DNA from: Escherichia coli
GTDB taxonomy: Bacteria > Pseudomonadota > Gammaproteobacteria > Enterobacterales > Enterobacteriaceae
Reading direction: 5' to 3' (one strand)
NCBI RefSeq assembly: GCF_044324875.1
Contig: NZ_CP172185.1
Length of the DNA: 64,000 bases
Part shown: piece by piece, positions 41,578 through 49,813 of the stretch
Layout of the letters: each line of letters begins with the position of its first letter
How positions within the stretch are numbered: the first letter of the stretch is position 1
Made by a program: the position numbers and the translations under genes
The notes under the pieces: model-generated
Database searches by the model: none
What the model was told of the DNA's origin: nothing
The model's input: only the letters and a program-made list of their open reading frames with translations

Positions 41578-41728
41578 CCTCTCTACCGGAGCCATGCGCT
41601 CCGGTTTTCCCTTCTTTTTACATCCTGTACATCACATCAAATCATTAAACTTGCATTAACTTATTTATAACTTATATTGTCACATGCAAATCATCATAGT
41701 TTCGAATGAAAGTTAATGCGAGGTGGTT

Positions 41729-42994
41729 ATGGCTTCTACTTTTACCAGCGACACATTGCCTGCCGATCACAAAGCAGCTATCCGTCAGATGAAGCACGCG
41801 CTGCGGGCACAGCTTGGCGACGTCCAGCAGATCTTTAATCAGCTAAGCGATGACATTGCTACGCGAGTGGCTGAAATCAACGCACTCAAAGCACAGGGCG
41901 ATGCCGTCTGGCCGGTGCTGTCTTATGCCGATATCAAAGCAGGTCATGTTACTGCAGAGCAGCGCGAACAGATTAAACGTCGCGGTTGTGCGGTGATAAA
42001 AGGCCATTTCCCCCGCGAACAAGCGCTAGGCTGGGATCAGTCGATGCTGGACTATCTGGACCGCAACCGCTTTGACGAGGTCTACAAAGGCCCCGGCGAT
42101 AATTTCTTCGGGACGCTCAGCGCTTCACGTCCCGAGATTTACCCCATCTACTGGTCGCAGGCGCAAATGCAGGCCCGCCAGAGTGAAGAAATGGCGAATG
42201 TGCAGTCGTTTCTCAATCGTCTGTGGACATTTGAAAGTGATGGAAAGCAATGGTTTAACCCGGATGTGAGCGTCATCTACCCTGACCGTATCCGCCGCCG
42301 TCCGCCCGGAACGACCTCCAAAGGTCTTGGAGCGCATACCGACTCCGGGGCGCTGGAACGCTGGCTGCTTCCAGCGTATCAGCACGTTTTCGCCAACGTC
42401 TTTAATGGCAATCTGGCGAAATACGATCCCTGGCATGCGGCACATCGTACGGAAGTTGAAGAGTACACGGTGGACAACACCACCAAATGTTCCGTGTTTC
42501 GGACATTCCAGGGCTGGACAGCGCTCTCTGATATGCTGCCTGGTCAGGGGCTGCTGCACGTCGTGCCCATTCCTGAAGCCATGGCGTACGTACTGTTACG
42601 TCCGCTGCTTGATGATGTGCCGGAGGATGAACTGTGCGGCGTAGCGCCCGGAAGAGTATTGCCGGTATCAGAGCAATGGCATCCACTGTTGATTGAGGCG
42701 TTAACCAGCATTCCAAAACTCGAAGCCGGAGACTCCGTCTGGTGGCACTGCGACGTCATCCATTCCGTTGCCCCCGTTGAAAATCAACAGGGCTGGGGCA
42801 ACGTGATGTACATTCCTGCGGCACCGATGTGCGAGAAAAATCTTGCCTACGCGCACAAGGTGAAGGCCGCACTGGAAAAAGGCGCATCGCCGTGCGACTT
42901 CCCGCGCGAGGACTATGAAACAAACTGGGAAGGACGCTTTACGCTTGCCGACCTCAACATTCACGGTAAGCGAGCGTTGGGAATCGACAGCTGA
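41729..42994 (+). CDS. ybiU: DUF1479 family protein YbiU
   Basis: 421 aa from MASTFTSDTLPADHKAAIRQ. Confidence 0.88.
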   Translation: MASTFTSDTLPADHKAAIRQMKHALRAQLGDVQQIFNQLSDDIATRVAEINALKAQGDAVWPVLSYADIKAGHVTAEQREQIKRRGCAVIKGHFPREQALGWDQSMLDYLDRNRFDEVYKGPGDNFFGTLSASRPEIYPIYWSQAQMQARQSEEMANVQSFLNRLWTFESDGKQWFNPDVSVIYPDRIRRRPPGTTSKGLGAHTDSGALERWLLPAYQHVFANVFNGNLAKYDPWHAAHRTEVEEYTVDNTTKCSVFRTFQGWTALSDMLPGQGLLHVVPIPEAMAYVLLRPLLDDVPEDELCGVAPGRVLPVSEQWHPLLIEALTSIPKLEAGDSVWWHCDVIHSVAPVENQQGWGNVMYIPAAPMCEKNLAYAHKVKAALEKGASPCDFPREDYETNWEGRFTLADLNIHGKRALGIDS

Positions 42995-44064
42995 GTGTCG
43001 TACAGCCCTTCCCGTTCCACGGCGGTGTTCCCTTTTCCTGGGCGAACCCGCCGCACTGACTCCCGCACCGCCAATCGTCCGTGCAGCAGCAGCGAGCCCA
43101 CCGGAGCATCCGGGCGAATCAGCCGCTGTTGCAACATTTGCACCGCTTCATTGCCTAGCTCATCGCATGGCACATGCACAGCCGTCAGGGGAACATCCTC
43201 GATTGCCGCAAGGTTAAAGCCGTCGATACTCATCACCGAGACATCCTGTGGTACGCGCAGACCACGACGATGTAGCGCATTTACCGTTCCCGCCGCCATA
43301 AAATCCCCGCCGACCAGAAACGCCGTCGGCAACGTCTTGCCATTGGCGGCATCCAGCCACGCTCCGACCTTTTCTTCCGCTTCTTTAGCGCTAAAACTGC
43401 TGATATTCAGCAAATGACGGTCATGGTGAAAGGCCAGATTATGCTGACGCCATGATTCTTTAATCCCTGCAAACCGCTGCTCCATAGTGTAGCGGCGCAG
43501 GCACATCACATTCATCACCTCCCGGTGACCCATTTCAAACAGATAGCGGGCGGCGAACGCGCCAATTAACCGATGGTCCGGCGCAATCGCCGGGAGGCGC
43601 ATTCGTTCATCACGGCAGTTGATCAGCACACAAGGCTTAGCGAGATCGGCGGCCAGATCATGGATGTGCGGATCGTCAATCCCCAGCAGGATCGCCGCCT
43701 GCGTATCTGCTTCATTCATCCGCGAGAGAAATAGCGCGGGATCGCTGTCAAACTCCTCCAGCGCGCAGTAACGCAGCCGCACTTCATGCGGCGATAACGC
43801 TTTGCTGATGCTCTGGATCACACGGTAATAAAAGATATCAGATCGTTGGTCAAAAGCGCGTTGCGGCGCGAAAATAATCAGGTTGTTCAGCAACATACGA
43901 CCTGCTGCCATGCCATCCATCACGCCCAACTCACGCGCGCAGGCCAGCACCTGTTCGCGAGCGCGTGCACTGGTATTCGCTTTGCCAGCCAGCACCCGCG
44001 AAACCGTACTCGGCGATAGCCCGGTACGTGCGGCGATATCGGCGATTTTCAGCTTCTTGTCCAT
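42961..44064 (-). CDS. LacI-family transcriptional regulator (accessory)
   Basis: N-terminal HTH MDKKLKIADIAARTGLSPSTVSRVLAG followed by a periplasmic-binding-protein-like sugar domain; its 3' end overlaps the ybiU 3' end by 34 nt. Confidence 0.85.
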   Translation of the reverse strand: MDKKLKIADIAARTGLSPSTVSRVLAGKANTSARAREQVLACARELGVMDGMAAGRMLLNNLIIFAPQRAFDQRSDIFYYRVIQSISKALSPHEVRLRYCALEEFDSDPALFLSRMNEADTQAAILLGIDDPHIHDLAADLAKPCVLINCRDERMRLPAIAPDHRLIGAFAARYLFEMGHREVMNVMCLRRYTMEQRFAGIKESWRQHNLAFHHDRHLLNISSFSAKEAEEKVGAWLDAANGKTLPTAFLVGGDFMAAGTVNALHRRGLRVPQDVSVMSIDGFNLAAIEDVPLTAVHVPCDELGNEAVQMLQQRLIRPDAPVGSLLLHGRLAVRESVRRVRPGKGNTAVEREGLYDTQLSIPNARLP

Positions 44065-44358
44065 TTTGTGATCTGCCTCTAATTCGGAAATGACAGAATT
44101 TTCATGAGCAAAAAAGCCCATTCTGTCTGGCATTAAATCCATTTCAGTAATGTATATCAGTCACTCATGGAAAAACGTGCACAAAACCCGCTTTCTTTCG
44201 CTTTTAGGGTCTCTTACTGTGAATTGGTAGAACAACTTCCATACAAAAATAATGGAAAAACGAACAATAAAGACTTTATTTATCAAAAAGTTAAAAGTGG
44301 TGTGACAACTCCATTCTGACGTTGCCGCACAAACCCTATACCATTCTGTGGAGTGCAT

Positions 44359-45660
44359 ATGAGTCAGGGTATCAATAACGATATGACTGCCAGTAAACCG
44401 CGCCATATCGTCAAAAATCTGCGTTGGTGGATACTGGTCCTTTTTTTGCTCGGTGTTACTGTCAACTACATCACGCGTAACTCGCTGGGTATTCTCGCCC
44501 CCGAACTGAAAAGCAACCTGGGGATTACCACCGAACAATATTCCTGGATTGTAGGTGCTTTCCAGCTCGCCTATACCCTATTCCAACCGTTGTGTGGATG
44601 GCTGATTGACGTCATTGGCCTCAAACTGGGCTTTATGATCTGCGCGGGACTGTGGGCGCTGGCCTGTCTGATGCATGCGGGGGCGGGAAACTGGGTACAT
44701 CTGGCGCTGTTGCGCTTCTTTATGGGCGGTGCGGAAGCCGCGGCAACCCCAGCAAACGCCAAAACCATCGGTGAATGGTTTCCAAAATCAGAACGCCCGA
44801 TCGCCGCAGGCTGGGCAGGCGTCGGTTTTTCCATCGGTGCCATGCTGGCCCCACCGATTATCTATTTTGCCCACGCTTCATTCGGCTGGCAGGGTGCATT
44901 TATGTTCACTGGCATCCTGGCGATGCTGTGGGTGGTGCTGTGGTGGGCGTTCTATCACAACCCGGATAAGCATCCTAACCTCAGCAAAGCCGAGCTGGAC
45001 TTTATCCGCCAGGATAACGAAGCGCCCCCTGTCAAGTTACCCTTTCTGACCGCACTGAAAACCGTAGGCAAAAATAAACGCTTTTACGGTATCGCTATCC
45101 CGGCCTTTATGGCAGAACCGGCGTGGGCGGTGATGAGTTTCTGGGTTCCGCTATACCTGTCCAAAACCTATGGCATGGACCTGAAGCAGATCGCATTATT
45201 CGCCTGGTTGCCGTTCCTCGCCGCTGATCTTGGCAGTATTGCCAGCGGCTATCTGACCAAACTTTACACCCGCCTGTTTGGGCTGAGTCGTGTGAACTCC
45301 GTTGTCGCATCATCGGTCAGTGGCGCATTCCTGATGGTTTCGCTGGCGGTGATGGCCTTTACCAATAACCCGTATATCGCCATCGTCCTTATTTCCATCG
45401 GCGGCTTCGGTCACCAGATCATCTCCTGCATGCTGAGCGCACTGGTGGTGGAATCCTTCGACAAAGGTCAGATGGCCACTGTTAACGGCATGCGCGGTTC
45501 TGCCGCGTGGATCGCAAGTTTCCTGTTCTCCCTGATTATCGGGGTTACCGCTGACAAAATCGGCTTTAACCCCCTGTTTATCGCCATGGGCTTCTTTGAC
45601 CTGATTGGTGCTTTCTTCCTGGTCACCTTTATTGCTGAACGTCGCGCAAAACGCGCCTGA
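44359..45660 (+). CDS. MFS transporter, anion:cation symporter (ACS, ExuT/DgoT-like) family
   Basis: 12-TM ORF; start taken at ATG 44359 with SD GGAG (ORF track opens at GTG 44353). Confidence 0.82.
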   Translation: MSQGINNDMTASKPRHIVKNLRWWILVLFLLGVTVNYITRNSLGILAPELKSNLGITTEQYSWIVGAFQLAYTLFQPLCGWLIDVIGLKLGFMICAGLWALACLMHAGAGNWVHLALLRFFMGGAEAAATPANAKTIGEWFPKSERPIAAGWAGVGFSIGAMLAPPIIYFAHASFGWQGAFMFTGILAMLWVVLWWAFYHNPDKHPNLSKAELDFIRQDNEAPPVKLPFLTALKTVGKNKRFYGIAIPAFMAEPAWAVMSFWVPLYLSKTYGMDLKQIALFAWLPFLAADLGSIASGYLTKLYTRLFGLSRVNSVVASSVSGAFLMVSLAVMAFTNNPYIAIVLISIGGFGHQIISCMLSALVVESFDKGQMATVNGMRGSAAWIASFLFSLIIGVTADKIGFNPLFIAMGFFDLIGAFFLVTFIAERRAKRA

Positions 45661-45674
45661 GAGTGGATGTAAAC

Positions 45675-48038
45675 ATGAAAACGCTGAAAAACTGGACCCT
45701 GCACAAACAGTCTGCCCACCACGTTGAACTGCTGGTCGATGGCCAGCATATCCTGTGCCTGTACGTGCTGGAAGAAAATCTGTTCCGCGTGCTGTTAAAA
45801 CGCAAAGGCGAGCTGGCGCTGGATCGCACCTGGAGCATTGCTCCGGCGCAGGATGTGCCATGGGAAGGGCGCAGCCGCGAAGATCTCAGCGGCTTTAGCC
45901 TGCCCGCGTGGACATTGATCCAGCACGACGACACCGTGGTTATCGCCACCGAGTCACTGCGTGCCACCGTTCACCAGCCGCTGTGGCTGGAGTGGCACTA
46001 TCGTAACAACGAAGGCGAATGGCTGCCGTTGGTGAATGACCGCCCGACCAGCGCTTATCTGCTGAATGCCCACGGCGACGGCGTGGCGCACTATCAGAGC
46101 CGTCGTAAAGATGAACGCTTTTATGGCCTCGGAGATAAAGCCGGCGACCTGCAACGCAACGGTAAACGTTACGAGATGCGTAACCTCGACGCGATGGGCT
46201 ACAACGCCGTTAGTACTGACCCGTTGTACAAACACATTCCATTCACCATCACCCGCCGCGATGACATTAGCTTCGGCCTGTTTTATGACAACCTCAGCAG
46301 CTGCTGGCTGGATCTGGGCAACGAGATCGACAACTACCACACCGCCTATCGCCGCTGGCAGGCGGAAGCGGGTGATATCGACTACTACCTGTTTACCGGC
46401 GAACGCGTACTTGATATCACCAAAGCCTTCGTACGCCTGACCGGCAAAACCCTGTTCGGACCGAAATGGAGCCTGGGCTACAGCGGTTCAACTATGCACT
46501 ACACCGATGCGCCGGACGCACAAAATCAGTTGATGAACTTTATCCGCCTGTGTGAAGAACATGCGATTCCCTGCGATTCGTTCCAGCTCTCTTCCGGTTA
46601 TACCTCAATTAACGGCAAGCGCTATGTGTTCAACTGGAATTACGACAAAGTGCCGCAGCCGAAAGTGATGAGCCAGGCATTTCACAATGCTGGTTTGCAC
46701 CTGGCCGCCAATATCAAGCCGTGCCTGTTGCAGGATCACCCACGCTATAACGAAGTGGCAGAAAGAGGACTGTTCATCCGTGATTCAGAAACAGATGAAC
46801 CAGAACGTTCCAGCTTCTGGGATGACGAAGGTTCTAACCTCGACTTTACTAATCCGCAGACCATCCAGTGGTGGCAGGAAGGCGTGACCACACAGCTTCT
46901 GGAGATGGGTATCGACTCCACCTGGAACGACAACAACGAATTCGAAGTATGGGACGGTGAAGCACGCTGTCACGGCTTTGGTCAGACGATCGCGATCAAA
47001 CATATTCGCCCGGTGATGCCACTGCTGATGATGCGAGCCTCGATGGAAGCCCAGCAACGTTTCGCTCCGGAAAAACGTCCGTACTTGATCTCCCGCTCCG
47101 GCTGCGCGGTAATGCAGCGCTATGTGCAGACCTGGAGCGGCGATAACCGCACTAGCTGGGACACTCTGCGCTACAACACCCGCATGGGTCTGGGGATGAG
47201 CCTCTCCGGGCTGTATAACCTCGGTCACGACGTCGGCGGTTTCTCCGGTGATAAGCCGGACCCGGAACTGTTTGTACGCTGGGTACAAAACGGCGTGATG
47301 CATCCGCGCTTTACGATTCACTCGTGGAACGATGACCATACCGTAAACGAACCGTGGATGTATCCGGGCGTCACTCCGGCGATCCGCAGCGCTATTGAGT
47401 TGCGCTATCGCCTGCTGCCCTACTTTTATACCCTGATGTGGCAGGCATACGCCGATGATGAACCAATGCTGCGTCCGACTTTCCTTGACCACGAGCACGA
47501 CGTTCAGACTTTTGAAGAGTGTGATGACTTCCTGCTTGGTCGCGATATTTTGGTTGCCAGCGTCGTAGAGCAAGGCGAGCGCCAGCGCCGTGTATGGCTG
47601 CCAGATAACGAAACTGGCTGGTACGATTTCTACAACGGCGAATGGTTCAGTGGCGGTCAGTGGATCACCCTCGACGCACCGCTGGAGAAACTGCCGCTGA
47701 TGGTGCGTGCCGGGGCTGGTCTACCGCTCAGCAAACGCATCACCTATGTGAGCGCAGAACAAGACGATACCCGCGAACTGAAACTGTTCCCGCTGAAAGG
47801 TGTGGGCACAACGTCCGGCCTGCTGTTTGAAGACGATGGCGAAAGCTGGGGCTACCAAACTGGTAATGCGCTTTGGGTGGAATGGGAAATGGTTTGCGAT
47901 GGGGCGACCATCAACCTGAAAGTCAACGCGCGCGGGGATTATCGACCTGCATGGAGTGCACTGAAAGTGTCATTACCAGTGGAAGAAAAACGCACGCTGC
48001 TGGTCAATGGTGTTGAAGGGAGTGAATGGATGCGTTAA
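45675..48038 (+). CDS. glycoside hydrolase family 31 (alpha-glucosidase / alpha-xylosidase-like), ~787 aa
   Basis: GH31 motifs: candidate nucleophile in STWNDNNEF and acid/base in GHDVGGF; start 12 nt after the MFS stop (ATG 45675; GTG 45663 also possible). Confidence 0.85.
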   Translation: MKTLKNWTLHKQSAHHVELLVDGQHILCLYVLEENLFRVLLKRKGELALDRTWSIAPAQDVPWEGRSREDLSGFSLPAWTLIQHDDTVVIATESLRATVHQPLWLEWHYRNNEGEWLPLVNDRPTSAYLLNAHGDGVAHYQSRRKDERFYGLGDKAGDLQRNGKRYEMRNLDAMGYNAVSTDPLYKHIPFTITRRDDISFGLFYDNLSSCWLDLGNEIDNYHTAYRRWQAEAGDIDYYLFTGERVLDITKAFVRLTGKTLFGPKWSLGYSGSTMHYTDAPDAQNQLMNFIRLCEEHAIPCDSFQLSSGYTSINGKRYVFNWNYDKVPQPKVMSQAFHNAGLHLAANIKPCLLQDHPRYNEVAERGLFIRDSETDEPERSSFWDDEGSNLDFTNPQTIQWWQEGVTTQLLEMGIDSTWNDNNEFEVWDGEARCHGFGQTIAIKHIRPVMPLLMMRASMEAQQRFAPEKRPYLISRSGCAVMQRYVQTWSGDNRTSWDTLRYNTRMGLGMSLSGLYNLGHDVGGFSGDKPDPELFVRWVQNGVMHPRFTIHSWNDDHTVNEPWMYPGVTPAIRSAIELRYRLLPYFYTLMWQAYADDEPMLRPTFLDHEHDVQTFEECDDFLLGRDILVASVVEQGERQRRVWLPDNETGWYDFYNGEWFSGGQWITLDAPLEKLPLMVRAGAGLPLSKRITYVSAEQDDTRELKLFPLKGVGTTSGLLFEDDGESWGYQTGNALWVEWEMVCDGATINLKVNARGDYRPAWSALKVSLPVEEKRTLLVNGVEGSEWMR

Positions 48039-48217
48039 ATCATTACCGGGGCCGGGAGGCGACTGCGCCTTACCCGGTCCAGCCATCGAATCCTTTACCT
48101 CAGTATTTCACGCTGCAGGAAGGCAGCAAACCTGTAAACCCCGGGAGCTTAAATAAGTAAGTGACCGGGGTGAACAGGTGAAGCCAATGCATCTGCCGCA
48201 TGAAAGACGGCGGGAAA

Positions 48218-49813
48218 TTAACCGTCGATCCCTTTACTACGCAGATAATCTTCGTAATTACCGCTAAAGTCGATCACGCGTTCCGGGGTGATTTCCAGAA
48301 TACGGGTCGCCAGGGAGCTTACGAACTCACGGTCGTGTGAAACAAAGATCAGCGTGCCCTGATACAGTTCCAGCGCCATGTTCAGCGACTCAATAGATTC
48401 CATATCCAGGTGGTTGGTCGGTTCGTCCATGATCAGAATGTTCGGCTTCTGCATCATTAATTTACCAAACAGCATCCGCCCTTTTTCTCCACCGGAAAGC
48501 ACTTTCGCTGGCTTTTTGATGTCGTCCTGGCTAAACAGCAAACGACCGAGAATGCTGCGTACCGCCTGCTCGTCATCGCCTTCCTGCTTCCACTGGCTCA
48601 TCCATTCGAACACGGTCAGATCATTTTCGAACTCATATTCATGGTCCTGGGCGTAGTAACCAATGCGTGCGTTTTCAGACCATTTTACGGTGCCGCTGTC
48701 CGGTTGCAGATCGCCCACCAGCGTTTTCAGCAGCGTTGATTTACCGACGCCGTTGGTACCCAGTACCGCCAGTTTTTCACCGACCTCCAGCAGCAGGTTG
48801 AGATTTTTAAACAGCGGACCGTTATCAAACCCTTTGGTCAGACCTTCCACTTCCAGCGCGTTACGGAACAGTTTCTTATCCTGTTCAAAACGGATGAACG
48901 GGTTCTGACGGCTGGAGGCTTTCACCTCTTCCAGTTTGATTTTATCAATCTGGCACGCGCGCGAAGTTGCCTGGCGAGATTTCGAGGCGTTGGCACTAAA
49001 GCGGCTAACGAAAGATTGCAGCTCAGCAATCTGCGCTTTCTTCTTGGCGTTATCAGCCAGCAGACGCTCACGCGCCTGGGTCGCCGCCGTCATGTACTCA
49101 TCGTAGTTACCTGGATAAACGCGCAGCTCGCCGTAATCCAGATCAGCCATGTGGGTACAAACCATGTTAAGGAAGTGACGGTCGTGCGAGATGATGATCA
49201 TGGTGCTGTCACGCTCGTTCAGCACCTGTTCCAGCCAACGAATGGTGTCGATGTCGAGGTTGTTGGTCGGTTCGTCGAGCAGGAGAATGTCCGGATCAGC
49301 AAACAGCGCCTGCGCCAGCAGCACACGCAGCTTCCAGCCAGGAGCAACTTCACTCATCGGGCCGTAGTGCTGTTCCACTGGAATTCCCACGCCAAGCAAC
49401 AGTTCACCGGCGCGAGCTTCCGCAGAGTAACCGTCCATTTCGCCGTATTTCACTTCCAGATCGGCCACTTTATAGCCGTCTTCTTCACTCATTTCCGGCA
49501 AAGCATAGATGCGGTCACGCTCCTGTTTCACTTCCCACAACTCTTTATGCCCCATGATCACCGTATCCAACACAGTGAACTCTTCAAAGGCAAACTGATC
49601 CTGACGCAGCTTACCAATGCGCTCGTTGGGATCGAGGGAAACGTTACCCAACGTCGGCTCTAAGTCGCCGCCGAGGATCTTCATAAAGGTGGATTTACCA
49701 CTACCGTTCGCGCCAATCAGGCCGTAACGGTTGCCGCCGCCAAATTTGACGGAAATGTTTTCAAACAACGGCTTACTGCCGAACTGCATGGTGACGTTAC
49801 TGGAAACTAACAC
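48218..49813 (-). CDS. ybiT: ABC-F family ATPase YbiT
   Basis: 531 aa with two ABC domains ([18 protein letters not shown]) and no membrane domain. Confidence 0.92.

Follow-up and report, generated by a model that had tools for sequence, protein, structure and literature searches.

A GH31 glycosidase cassette between ybiU and ybiT in some Escherichia coli, with a predicted role in the use of alpha-linked D-glucuronides

The window considered here is a stretch of 64,000 nucleotides from Escherichia coli (contig NZ_CP172185.1 of assembly GCF_044324875.1), and it contains a cassette of three genes between ybiU and ybiT. These genes encode a LacI/GalR-family regulator, a major facilitator superfamily (MFS) carrier and a glycosidase of family GH31, the substrate of which is the main subject of this account (Table 1). 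A preliminary inspection of the DNA, referred to below as the sequence-only reading, had proposed a regulator, carrier and hydrolase module in this gap, and three intact open reading frames (ORFs) are indeed found there. It had also described ybiU and ybiT as adjacent in K-12, which is the case in MG1655, and had described an overlap between the 3' ends of the regulator gene and ybiU, which is present and is annotated in the same way by RefSeq in strain 2012C-4221 (99.8% identical). The GH31 gene begins 14 nt past the stop codon of the carrier gene; the start given for it earlier, 45663, is an upstream GTG.

Table 1. Features of the ybiU-ybiT interval, with positions in the 64,000-nucleotide window.
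Feature	Position	Strand	Remark
ybiU	41723-42994	+	left flank
Regulator/ybiU overlap	42961-42994		34 nt, convergent (tail-to-tail)
LacI/GalR-family regulator	42961-44064	-	367 aa from the cross-genus start MDKKLKIADIA
Candidate LacI-type operator, ATGACAGAATTTTCAT	44090-44105		26-41 nt upstream of the 44064 start
Candidate second operator, ATGGAAAAACGTGCACA (consensus ATGAAAATnTTTGCAAA)	44167-44183		most conserved block in the 16-genus intergenic alignment
Weak UxuR/ExuR-box-like site, ATTGGTAGAACAAC	44223-44236		overlaps the predicted -35 hexamer
Sigma-70-like promoter candidate of the MFS-GH31 operon	44224-44253	+	TTGGTA, 18-nt spacer, AATAAT
ExuT-like MFS carrier (anion:cation symporter family)	44359-45660	+	433 aa
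GH31 glycosidase, predicted cytoplasmic	45675-48038	+	787 aa; distinct clade
GH31 codon S306	46590
GH31 codon N346	46710
GH31 codon K348	46716
GH31 codon D419	46929
GH31 codon N420	46932
GH31 codon D490	47142
GH31 codon R545	47307
Spacer from GH31 to the ybiT 3' end	48039-48224		GC-rich inverted repeat at 48193-48213
ybiT	48218-49813	-	right flank

The carrier had been assigned to the anion:cation symporter (ACS) type, and this assignment stands, its best NCBIfam match being TIGR00893 (8e-80) and its best relative of solved structure DgoT (1e-38). Its identity to E. coli ExuT amounts to 43% over the full length, with the same TRN motif in the first helix, and that to GarP to 27%. In DgoT, the carboxylate of the substrate is bound by Arg47 through a salt bridge and coordinated by Tyr79, and proton coupling is the role of Glu133 (PMC6532931). 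A phmmer alignment to 6e9n places DgoT R47, Y79, R126 and E133 opposite R40, Y72, R119 and E126 of the cassette protein. Because of its identity to ExuT and the retention of the carboxylate and proton residues of DgoT, the protein is, as judged by alignment, a paralogue of the hexuronate carriers and not a neutral-sugar carrier, and it groups with ExuT rather than with carriers of neutral sugars. An identity of 43% points to a paralogue rather than an orthologue of ExuT, for which a 2026 preprint gives galacturonate and glucuronate as substrates and which strains with the cassette presumably retain. Moreover, since this separate paralogue is encoded next to a glycosidase, its cargo is probably a glycoside and not the free acid. 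A homologue search with the carrier returned only near-identical proteins labelled 'MFS transporter'.

The glycosidase has the full GH31 domain set in precomputed Pfam annotation (PF13802, PF01055, PF21365 and PF17137) and matches 68 solved GH31 chains, with E-values up to 1e-10. Endoplasmic reticulum (ER) glucosidase II (1.5e-78) and a Flavobacterium dextranase are the nearest of these structures, YicI (4.7e-35) and YihQ (2.5e-30) are much more remote, and none of the solved GH31 structures matched comes from the clade to which the cassette enzyme belongs. All NCBIfam models score well below their cut-offs, the best being MalA and alpha-xylosidase (300 versus 800 and 226 versus 606, respectively), and database labels for the protein read either GH31 family protein or alpha-glucosidase. 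Two motifs that had been put forward as catalytic, WNDNNEF (residues 417-423) and GHDVGGF (residues 517-523), are both present. The first does hold the nucleophile, as D419 aligns with D518 of human lysosomal alpha-glucosidase (GAA), D416 of YicI and D405 of YihQ, but the acid/base is D490 within WSGDN, which aligns with GAA D616, YicI D482 and YihQ D472, and not the Asp of GHDVGGF.

Eleven residues contact the sugar in the -1 pocket of human GAA (PMC5653652), and these were mapped on to the cassette enzyme by way of a 418-residue segment of human GAA that is 100% identical to the solved GAA chains. Amongst the residues kept are R600 and H674, as R474 and H549, together with W516, W613 and F649, as W417, W487 and F523; this conserved Arg/His/Trp/Phe set indicates that the pocket is intact on the side where O2 and O3 are read. 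Four of the eleven are replaced, with D404 becoming S306, I441 becoming N346, M519 becoming N420 and W376 becoming M274, and two neighbouring positions gain a basic residue, namely K348 in place of D443 and R545 in place of F670. On this mapping, the half of the pocket around C4-C6 is turned polar and basic. We take the changed positions to be those that pack against C5 and exclude the C6 group in YicI, where F277, C307 and W345, which align with M274/H275, S307 and N346, are presumably the bulky residues that shut the C6 group out. The comparison with YicI and YihQ suggested by the sequence-only reading thus yields a pocket that matches neither the ordinary alpha-glucosidases, with their D404, I441, M519 and W376 (GAA numbering), nor the alpha-xylosidase pocket of the YicI type.

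The altered pocket is the property of a large clade. In a search of 1.84 billion cluster representatives, the 150 best matches gave 111 full-length proteins, of which 97 have in common (S/G)SGY, N-x-K-P and WNDN(N/C)E, the corresponding motifs of ordinary GH31 enzymes being D-I-(D/H)-Y, I-x-D-P and WNDMNE. Within these 97 representatives N346, K348 and N420 are invariant (97/97), M274 is kept in 96 and R545 in 95, and the position of D404 is occupied by Ser (85), Gly (10) or Ala (2). Canonical GH31 representatives, by comparison, keep D404 in 10/10 and have the clade residue at the other five positions in 0/10. A subgroup of the clade has GSGY for SSGY (for example P0124; locus L091, 233-4782) and adjoins genes for AP_endonuc_2 and DUF993 proteins, not uronate genes; it may act on a different substrate.

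The neighbours of the GH31 gene were recorded in a scan of 80 loci, with one genome taken per species. An ExuT-like carrier is encoded directly upstream of GH31 in 47 of the 80, which belong to Enterobacterales, the Pseudomonas syringae group and Aeromonas, and most of the 47 also have a divergent LacI gene. A second set of 27 non-enterobacterial loci (Vibrio, Marinomonas, Pasteurellaceae, Halomonadaceae, many alphaproteobacteria and two Firmicutes) encodes GH31 proteins of 53-64% identity, lacks the MFS carrier and has instead a tripartite ATP-independent periplasmic (TRAP) transporter, made up of the permease DctM (24/27 loci), the binding protein DctP (20/27) and the small subunit DctQ (18/27). 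Annotation of these TRAP-type loci with NCBIfam gives as further neighbours the glucuronate isomerase UxaC (22/27; 686 bits), the mannonate dehydratase UxuA (17/27; 682 bits) and the fructuronate reductase UxuB (16/27; 770 bits versus 191 for tagaturonate reductase), as well as KdgK (7/27) and Eda (6/27). An UxuR/ExuR-like GntR regulator is encoded in 17 and a GH2 beta-glucuronidase-like protein in 12 of the 27. Of the pathway enzymes, UxuA and UxuB serve the glucuronate branch only.

The best solved relatives of the linked TRAP binding protein are of the DctP family, for example 4n8y (1e-76), and the structures of this group reportedly contain bound glucuronate or galacturonate. One GH31 clade is thus linked to two transporter types of different descent, each of them related to hexuronate carriers. 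The association extends to a clade member of 39% identity, which is encoded in the same kind of operon with a sugar mutarotase in addition; the contigs of two distant members were too short for context. In one locus (L093, 11495-13381) the GH31 gene of a distant member is followed by genes for a xylose-isomerase-like TIM-barrel protein (AP_endonuc_2), a YgjV-like membrane protein and an RbsD/FucU mutarotase, with a Fucose_iso_C protein encoded upstream, and these extra genes may represent further steps in uronide or aglycone processing. No signal peptide was predicted in the GH31 or GH2 proteins checked, and hence the glycoside must cross the inner membrane intact.

Regulatory sites provide a further link with glucuronate. 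The E. coli UxuR site is AAATTGGTATACCAATTT (PMC8092373), and sites of this form are present in the K-12 gntP-uxuA region, from which a core with a 2-nt spacer was taken. When no more than one mismatch is allowed, 22 of 28 TRAP-type loci hold this 14-nt core, ATTGGTNNACCAAT, in their divergent dctP/dctQ promoter. When up to two are allowed, 21 of 45 enterobacterial-type loci hold it within the 330 nt that precede the carrier gene, where about 0.02 would be expected per locus. The E. coli site differs from the core at 2 of its 12 fixed positions and aligns with boxes of Serratia, Hafnia, Pectobacterium, Yersinia and Budvicia that have one mismatch or none; perfect or one-mismatch boxes are also found in Erwinia and Aeromonas. 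At several loci of Erwinia, Pantoea, Klebsiella sp. BIGb0407 and Aeromonas (L022, L025, L033, L047 and L072) the carrier and GH31 genes have no adjoining LacI gene and one or two strong UxuR boxes in its place, which suggests that regulation there may be by UxuR/ExuR alone.

The cassette regulator gives full-length NCBIfam matches to RbsR, CytR and PurR, all below the equivalog cut-offs, and its orthologues have the Pfam LacI and Peripla_BP_1/3 domains, that is, the helix-turn-helix and sugar-binding domain of the LacI/GalR family. Its ORF can be read from 44142 (the longest version), from 44121 (the RefSeq start) or from 44064, the start that is common to other genera. An alignment of 16 orthologous intergenic regions keeps CCATTTTGTGATC, which holds the start codon at 44064, and this ATG is probably the true start. 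The N-terminal extension annotated by RefSeq probably covers the gene's own operator, given the conserved start at 44064. The extension as a whole (44065-44142) is not kept in other genera and overlies a conserved palindrome. This palindrome, the first candidate operator, reads ATGAAAAAATTTTCAT in other genera, and a near-perfect form of it aligns at the corresponding place in loci of Citrobacter, Enterobacter, Cedecea, Mangrovibacter, Pluralibacter, Dickeya, Acerihabitans and Pectobacterium.

Both putative operators were identified by a custom palindrome scan together with the cross-genus alignment; an inverted-repeat tool applied to the intergenic region found nothing. An exact 11-nt direct repeat, ATGGAAAAACG, occurs at 44167-44177, within the most conserved block, and again at 44252-44262. 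The promoter candidate matches at 9 of 12 positions, a weak score from a consensus scan only.

According to the sequence-only reading, the cassette would serve to take up and hydrolyse an acidic alpha-glycoside and not a plain alpha-glucoside, and this general idea is supported by the ExuT-like carrier and the non-ordinary GH31 pocket. The acid is most likely D-glucuronate. We lean, if slightly, towards the view that the GH31 protein is a cytoplasmic alpha-glucuronidase and that the cassette encodes a self-contained system for the use of alpha-linked D-glucuronides. The ExuT paralogue would import the intact anionic glycoside together with protons, the carboxylate being held by the conserved Arg, Tyr and Glu core. 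In the cytoplasm, the retaining GH31 enzyme would cut the alpha-glycosidic bond with D419 as nucleophile and D490 as acid/base, the glucuronic acid lying in the -1 pocket, where its C6 carboxylate would be accommodated by the exchange of the hydrophobic and Asp lining at C4-C6 for Ser306, Asn346, Asn420 and Met274, with Lys348 and Arg545 in addition. The glucuronate set free would be passed to E. coli's core Ashwell pathway (UxaC, UxuB, UxuA, KdgK and Eda), and the aglycone would be used separately. The divergent LacI repressor would hold the operon off until the glycoside or its product appears, with additional control by UxuR/ExuR likely in many relatives. Gene content, homologies, residue patterns, genomic context and operator statistics were observed directly, and it is beyond these that we infer the direction of transport, the identity of the -1 sugar, the parts played by K348 and R545 and the nature of the effector.

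Candidate aglycones include glycerol, as in the glucuronosyl-glycerol of glucuronosyl-diacylglycerol lipids, xylose, as in (methyl)glucuronosyl-xylose from xylan, and inositol, as in the glucuronosyl-inositol of plant sphingolipids. Whether the clade represents the first GH31 alpha-glucuronidases, with a retaining mechanism, and an unrecognised alpha-glucuronide route in some E. coli and most Enterobacterales, is in our estimation an evenly balanced matter. Were this so, the likely sources would be the head group of glucuronosyl-diacylglycerol or the acid-resistant (methyl)glucuronosyl-xylose from xylan. Enterobacter asburiae JDR-1 reportedly ferments (methyl)glucuronosyl-xylose by way of an intracellular hydrolase.

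Several points weigh against an alpha-glucuronidase. The genomic context makes glucuronate a product, which would fit either side of the cleaved bond, and K348, N346, S306, N420 and R545 are placed facing C6 because they align with known pocket-lining residues. The TRAP binding proteins resemble ones that reportedly enclose monomeric hexuronates, which makes a part for them in glycoside import no more than putative. No uronate genes adjoin the E. coli cassette, and its UxuR box is degenerate and not significant alone, with 5 matches in the window against 2.9 expected. As to novelty, full-text searches gave no paper that connects GH31 with glucuronidase activity or with glucuronate operons, although an earlier annotation or comparative-genomics prediction may exist.

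In the main rival explanation glucuronate lies on the other side of the bond, and the GH31 enzyme would free a neutral alpha-sugar, glucose or xylose, from a disaccharide such as Xyl-alpha-1,3-GlcA or Glc-alpha-1,x-GlcA, with glucuronate as the leaving group and the transporters reading the glucuronate end. The glucuronate pathway and the hexuronate-type transporters would fit this as well, the O2- and O3-binding residues are unchanged, and the GH2 protein of the TRAP-type loci, which is cytoplasmic, could act with GH31 to dismantle chains of alternating alpha-Xyl and beta-GlcA. We regard this alternative as unlikely, however, since the replaced residues include ones that form the lining of the GAA -1 pocket (D404, I441, M519 and W376), and the changes are not confined to the aglycone site. 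GH31 xylosidases, moreover, block C6 with an aromatic barrier (PMC8245568), where the clade has Asn and Lys. Xylose genes are absent from the conserved neighbours, and the mutarotase encoded in one operon hints that the pathway receives the sugar that is freed as the alpha-anomer.

A second possibility is that the enzyme is an alpha-galacturonidase, or an alpha-hexuronidase of broad specificity, for galacturonides from pectin, and an axial O4 could be favoured by the loss of the Asp that normally binds an equatorial one. Both galacturonate and glucuronate are substrates of ExuT, and many of the organisms with these genes are plant-associated, for instance Pectobacterium, Dickeya and Erwinia. 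The linked fructuronate reductase and mannonate dehydratase, however, belong to the glucuronate branch, the UxuB score being far above that for tagaturonate reductase, and neither UxaA nor UxaB is found among the conserved neighbours, so that we hold a galacturonide substrate to be very improbable.

It is equally hard to believe that the cassette serves an ordinary neutral alpha-glucosidase or alpha-xylosidase, with an ExuT-like carrier recruited for a neutral sugar and a uronate context that is coincidental. Such a function would agree with the labels 'alpha-glucosidase' and 'alpha-xylosidase' given to relatives by RefSeq and other sources, with MalA and alpha-xylosidase as the best NCBIfam matches and with ER glucosidase II as the nearest solved structure. 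These NCBIfam scores are nevertheless far under the cut-offs, four pocket residues are unlike those of all canonical representatives and the carboxylate-binding residues of the carrier are intact. The context and the UxuR boxes, moreover, recur in alphaproteobacteria, gammaproteobacteria and a Firmicute.

That the cassette is a sulfoquinovosidase-like system is scarcely credible, and this reading was rejected. In its favour, the extra basic residues of the pocket would go well with a gluco-configured sugar that is anionic at C6, and a marine GH31 clade has gained the activity independently, with another residue set and in a cluster with a TRAP transporter (PMC12780224). Against it, no GH31 enzyme in the comparison is more remote than YihQ, the Q/E-RWY motif of GH31 subfamily 13 (YihQ Q288, R301, W304 and Y508; PMC12780224) is represented by its Arg alone (R316, whose equivalent is also found in GAA and glucosidase II), W304 falling in a gap or opposite F319 and Y508 being replaced by F523, and no sulfoglycolysis genes occur in the window or in the 80 related loci, where glucuronate genes are linked instead. 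The analogy with YihQ that had been drawn earlier hence fails as a statement of membership.

The cassette is present in 577 of 5,426 complete E. coli genomes (~11%), in all of them on the chromosome, and the copies are 98.2-99.9% identical apart from one genome in the 90-95% band. It is also carried by Shigella sonnei. In E. coli IH5 (NZ_CP168949.1) a match to only 19% of the cassette, in three places, covers features annotated as 'alpha-glucosidase', 'MFS transporter' and 'Bbp16 family capsid cement protein', and the cassette there may be disrupted or rearranged, perhaps by a prophage. The same three genes occupy the same ybiU-ybiT slot in Klebsiella pneumoniae, and the slot is also used in Pseudocitrobacter, Enterobacter, Citrobacter werkmanii, Kosakonia and Pluralibacter, with GH31 proteins of 84-90% identity. 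The description of the cassette as an accessory module is thus true for E. coli but not for the Enterobacteriaceae, several genera of which share the slot. In Cronobacter the cassette adjoins ybiT, and in Serratia it is at another site. Cronobacter sakazakii (L007, 5304-14929) has it between moeB and ybiT, with ybiY-W-V-U absent and a two-partner-secretion/haemagglutinin-like gene inserted 3' of GH31.

By BLAST, the junctions with K-12-homologous DNA are at 42987/42988 on the left and 48224/48225 on the right, so that 42988-48224 stands where K-12 MG1655 has 251 bp. This K-12 spacer shares no sequence with the cassette by BLAST, and its repeats are, from general knowledge of such sequences, taken to be of the repetitive extragenic palindromic (REP) type. 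The last codons of ybiU and ybiT differ between the cassette-bearing and K-12 alleles (42985-42994 and 48218-48227 compared with L001 7552-7804), and YbiU ends in GIDS in the former and GMDV in the latter; the boundary of the polymorphism hence lies inside both coding ends. Divergence of the cassette within E. coli is typical of old chromosomal genes, and between genera it tracks that of the flanking genes. Because of this pattern and of the slot common to several genera, the K-12 state is probably a loss of the cassette. A recent horizontal insertion was considered and rejected, as signs of mobile elements were sought at the junctions and only replacement of the REP-bearing spacer was seen, in a slot that is cross-genus. 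The 179-nt stretch after the GH31 stop codon (48039-48217) is GC-rich with several CCGGG/CCCGG inverted repeats, that of 48193-48213 sitting right before the ybiT stop codon, and the spacer may be a bidirectional terminator or a repeat remnant.

The cassette represents a well-supported prediction, made from sequence, of a testable new specificity in a known enzyme family, within an ordinary architecture of regulator, carrier and hydrolase. GH31 is a heavily studied family, with links to Pompe disease, starch digestion in the gut and sulfoquinovose, and the clade would add a new specificity to it, and a retaining mechanism to those by which alpha-glucuronides are cleaved. A variable catabolic trait of E. 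coli, shared with Shigella sonnei, would thereby receive a name, and the trait would also be common in Klebsiella, Enterobacter, Cronobacter, Serratia, plant pathogens and marine bacteria. Alpha-glucuronides are indicated as an overlooked carbon source, and the use of glucuronosyl-diacylglycerol, if confirmed, would be the carboxylate twin of the sulfoquinovose story.

A close functional parallel is the gus/uid operon of E. coli, which encodes the GH2 beta-glucuronidase UidA, the glucuronide carrier UidB and the repressor UidR. The logic is the same, with a dedicated glucuronide carrier, a cytoplasmic glycosidase that feeds UxaC/UxuAB and a local repressor beside UxuR. The proteins, however, are unrelated, the cassette having a GH31 rather than a GH2 enzyme, an ACS-type ExuT paralogue rather than a GPH carrier and a LacI rather than a TetR regulator; moreover, its predicted anomer is the opposite one (alpha), and it is confined to about 11% of E. 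coli genomes. With the YihQ system of GH31 subfamily 13 the cassette would have in common a cytoplasmic retaining GH31 enzyme, a C6-anionic gluco-configured alpha-glycoside and a dedicated carrier, although the RWY motif and the sulfoglycolysis genes are missing from it, the YihO carrier is of the GPH type and the kinship in sequence is remote.

The canonical alpha-glucosidases, such as ER glucosidase II, lysosomal GAA and MalA, share with the cassette enzyme the domain layout, the nucleophile motif WxDxxE, the Asp that serves as acid/base and the O2- and O3-binding Arg and His. Unlike these enzymes, the clade has D404, I441, M519 and W376 replaced and K348 and R545 added, and is found in the context of uronate rather than of starch or glucan use. 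Finally, the alpha-glucuronidases of GH67, GH115 and GH4 catalyse the reaction predicted here, in which D-glucuronate or its 4-O-methyl form is freed from an alpha-glycoside, but they have no sequence relationship to the cassette GH31. GH67 and GH115 are inverting families and GH4 works with NAD+, whereas the GH31 enzyme would retain the configuration by way of a covalent Asp intermediate.

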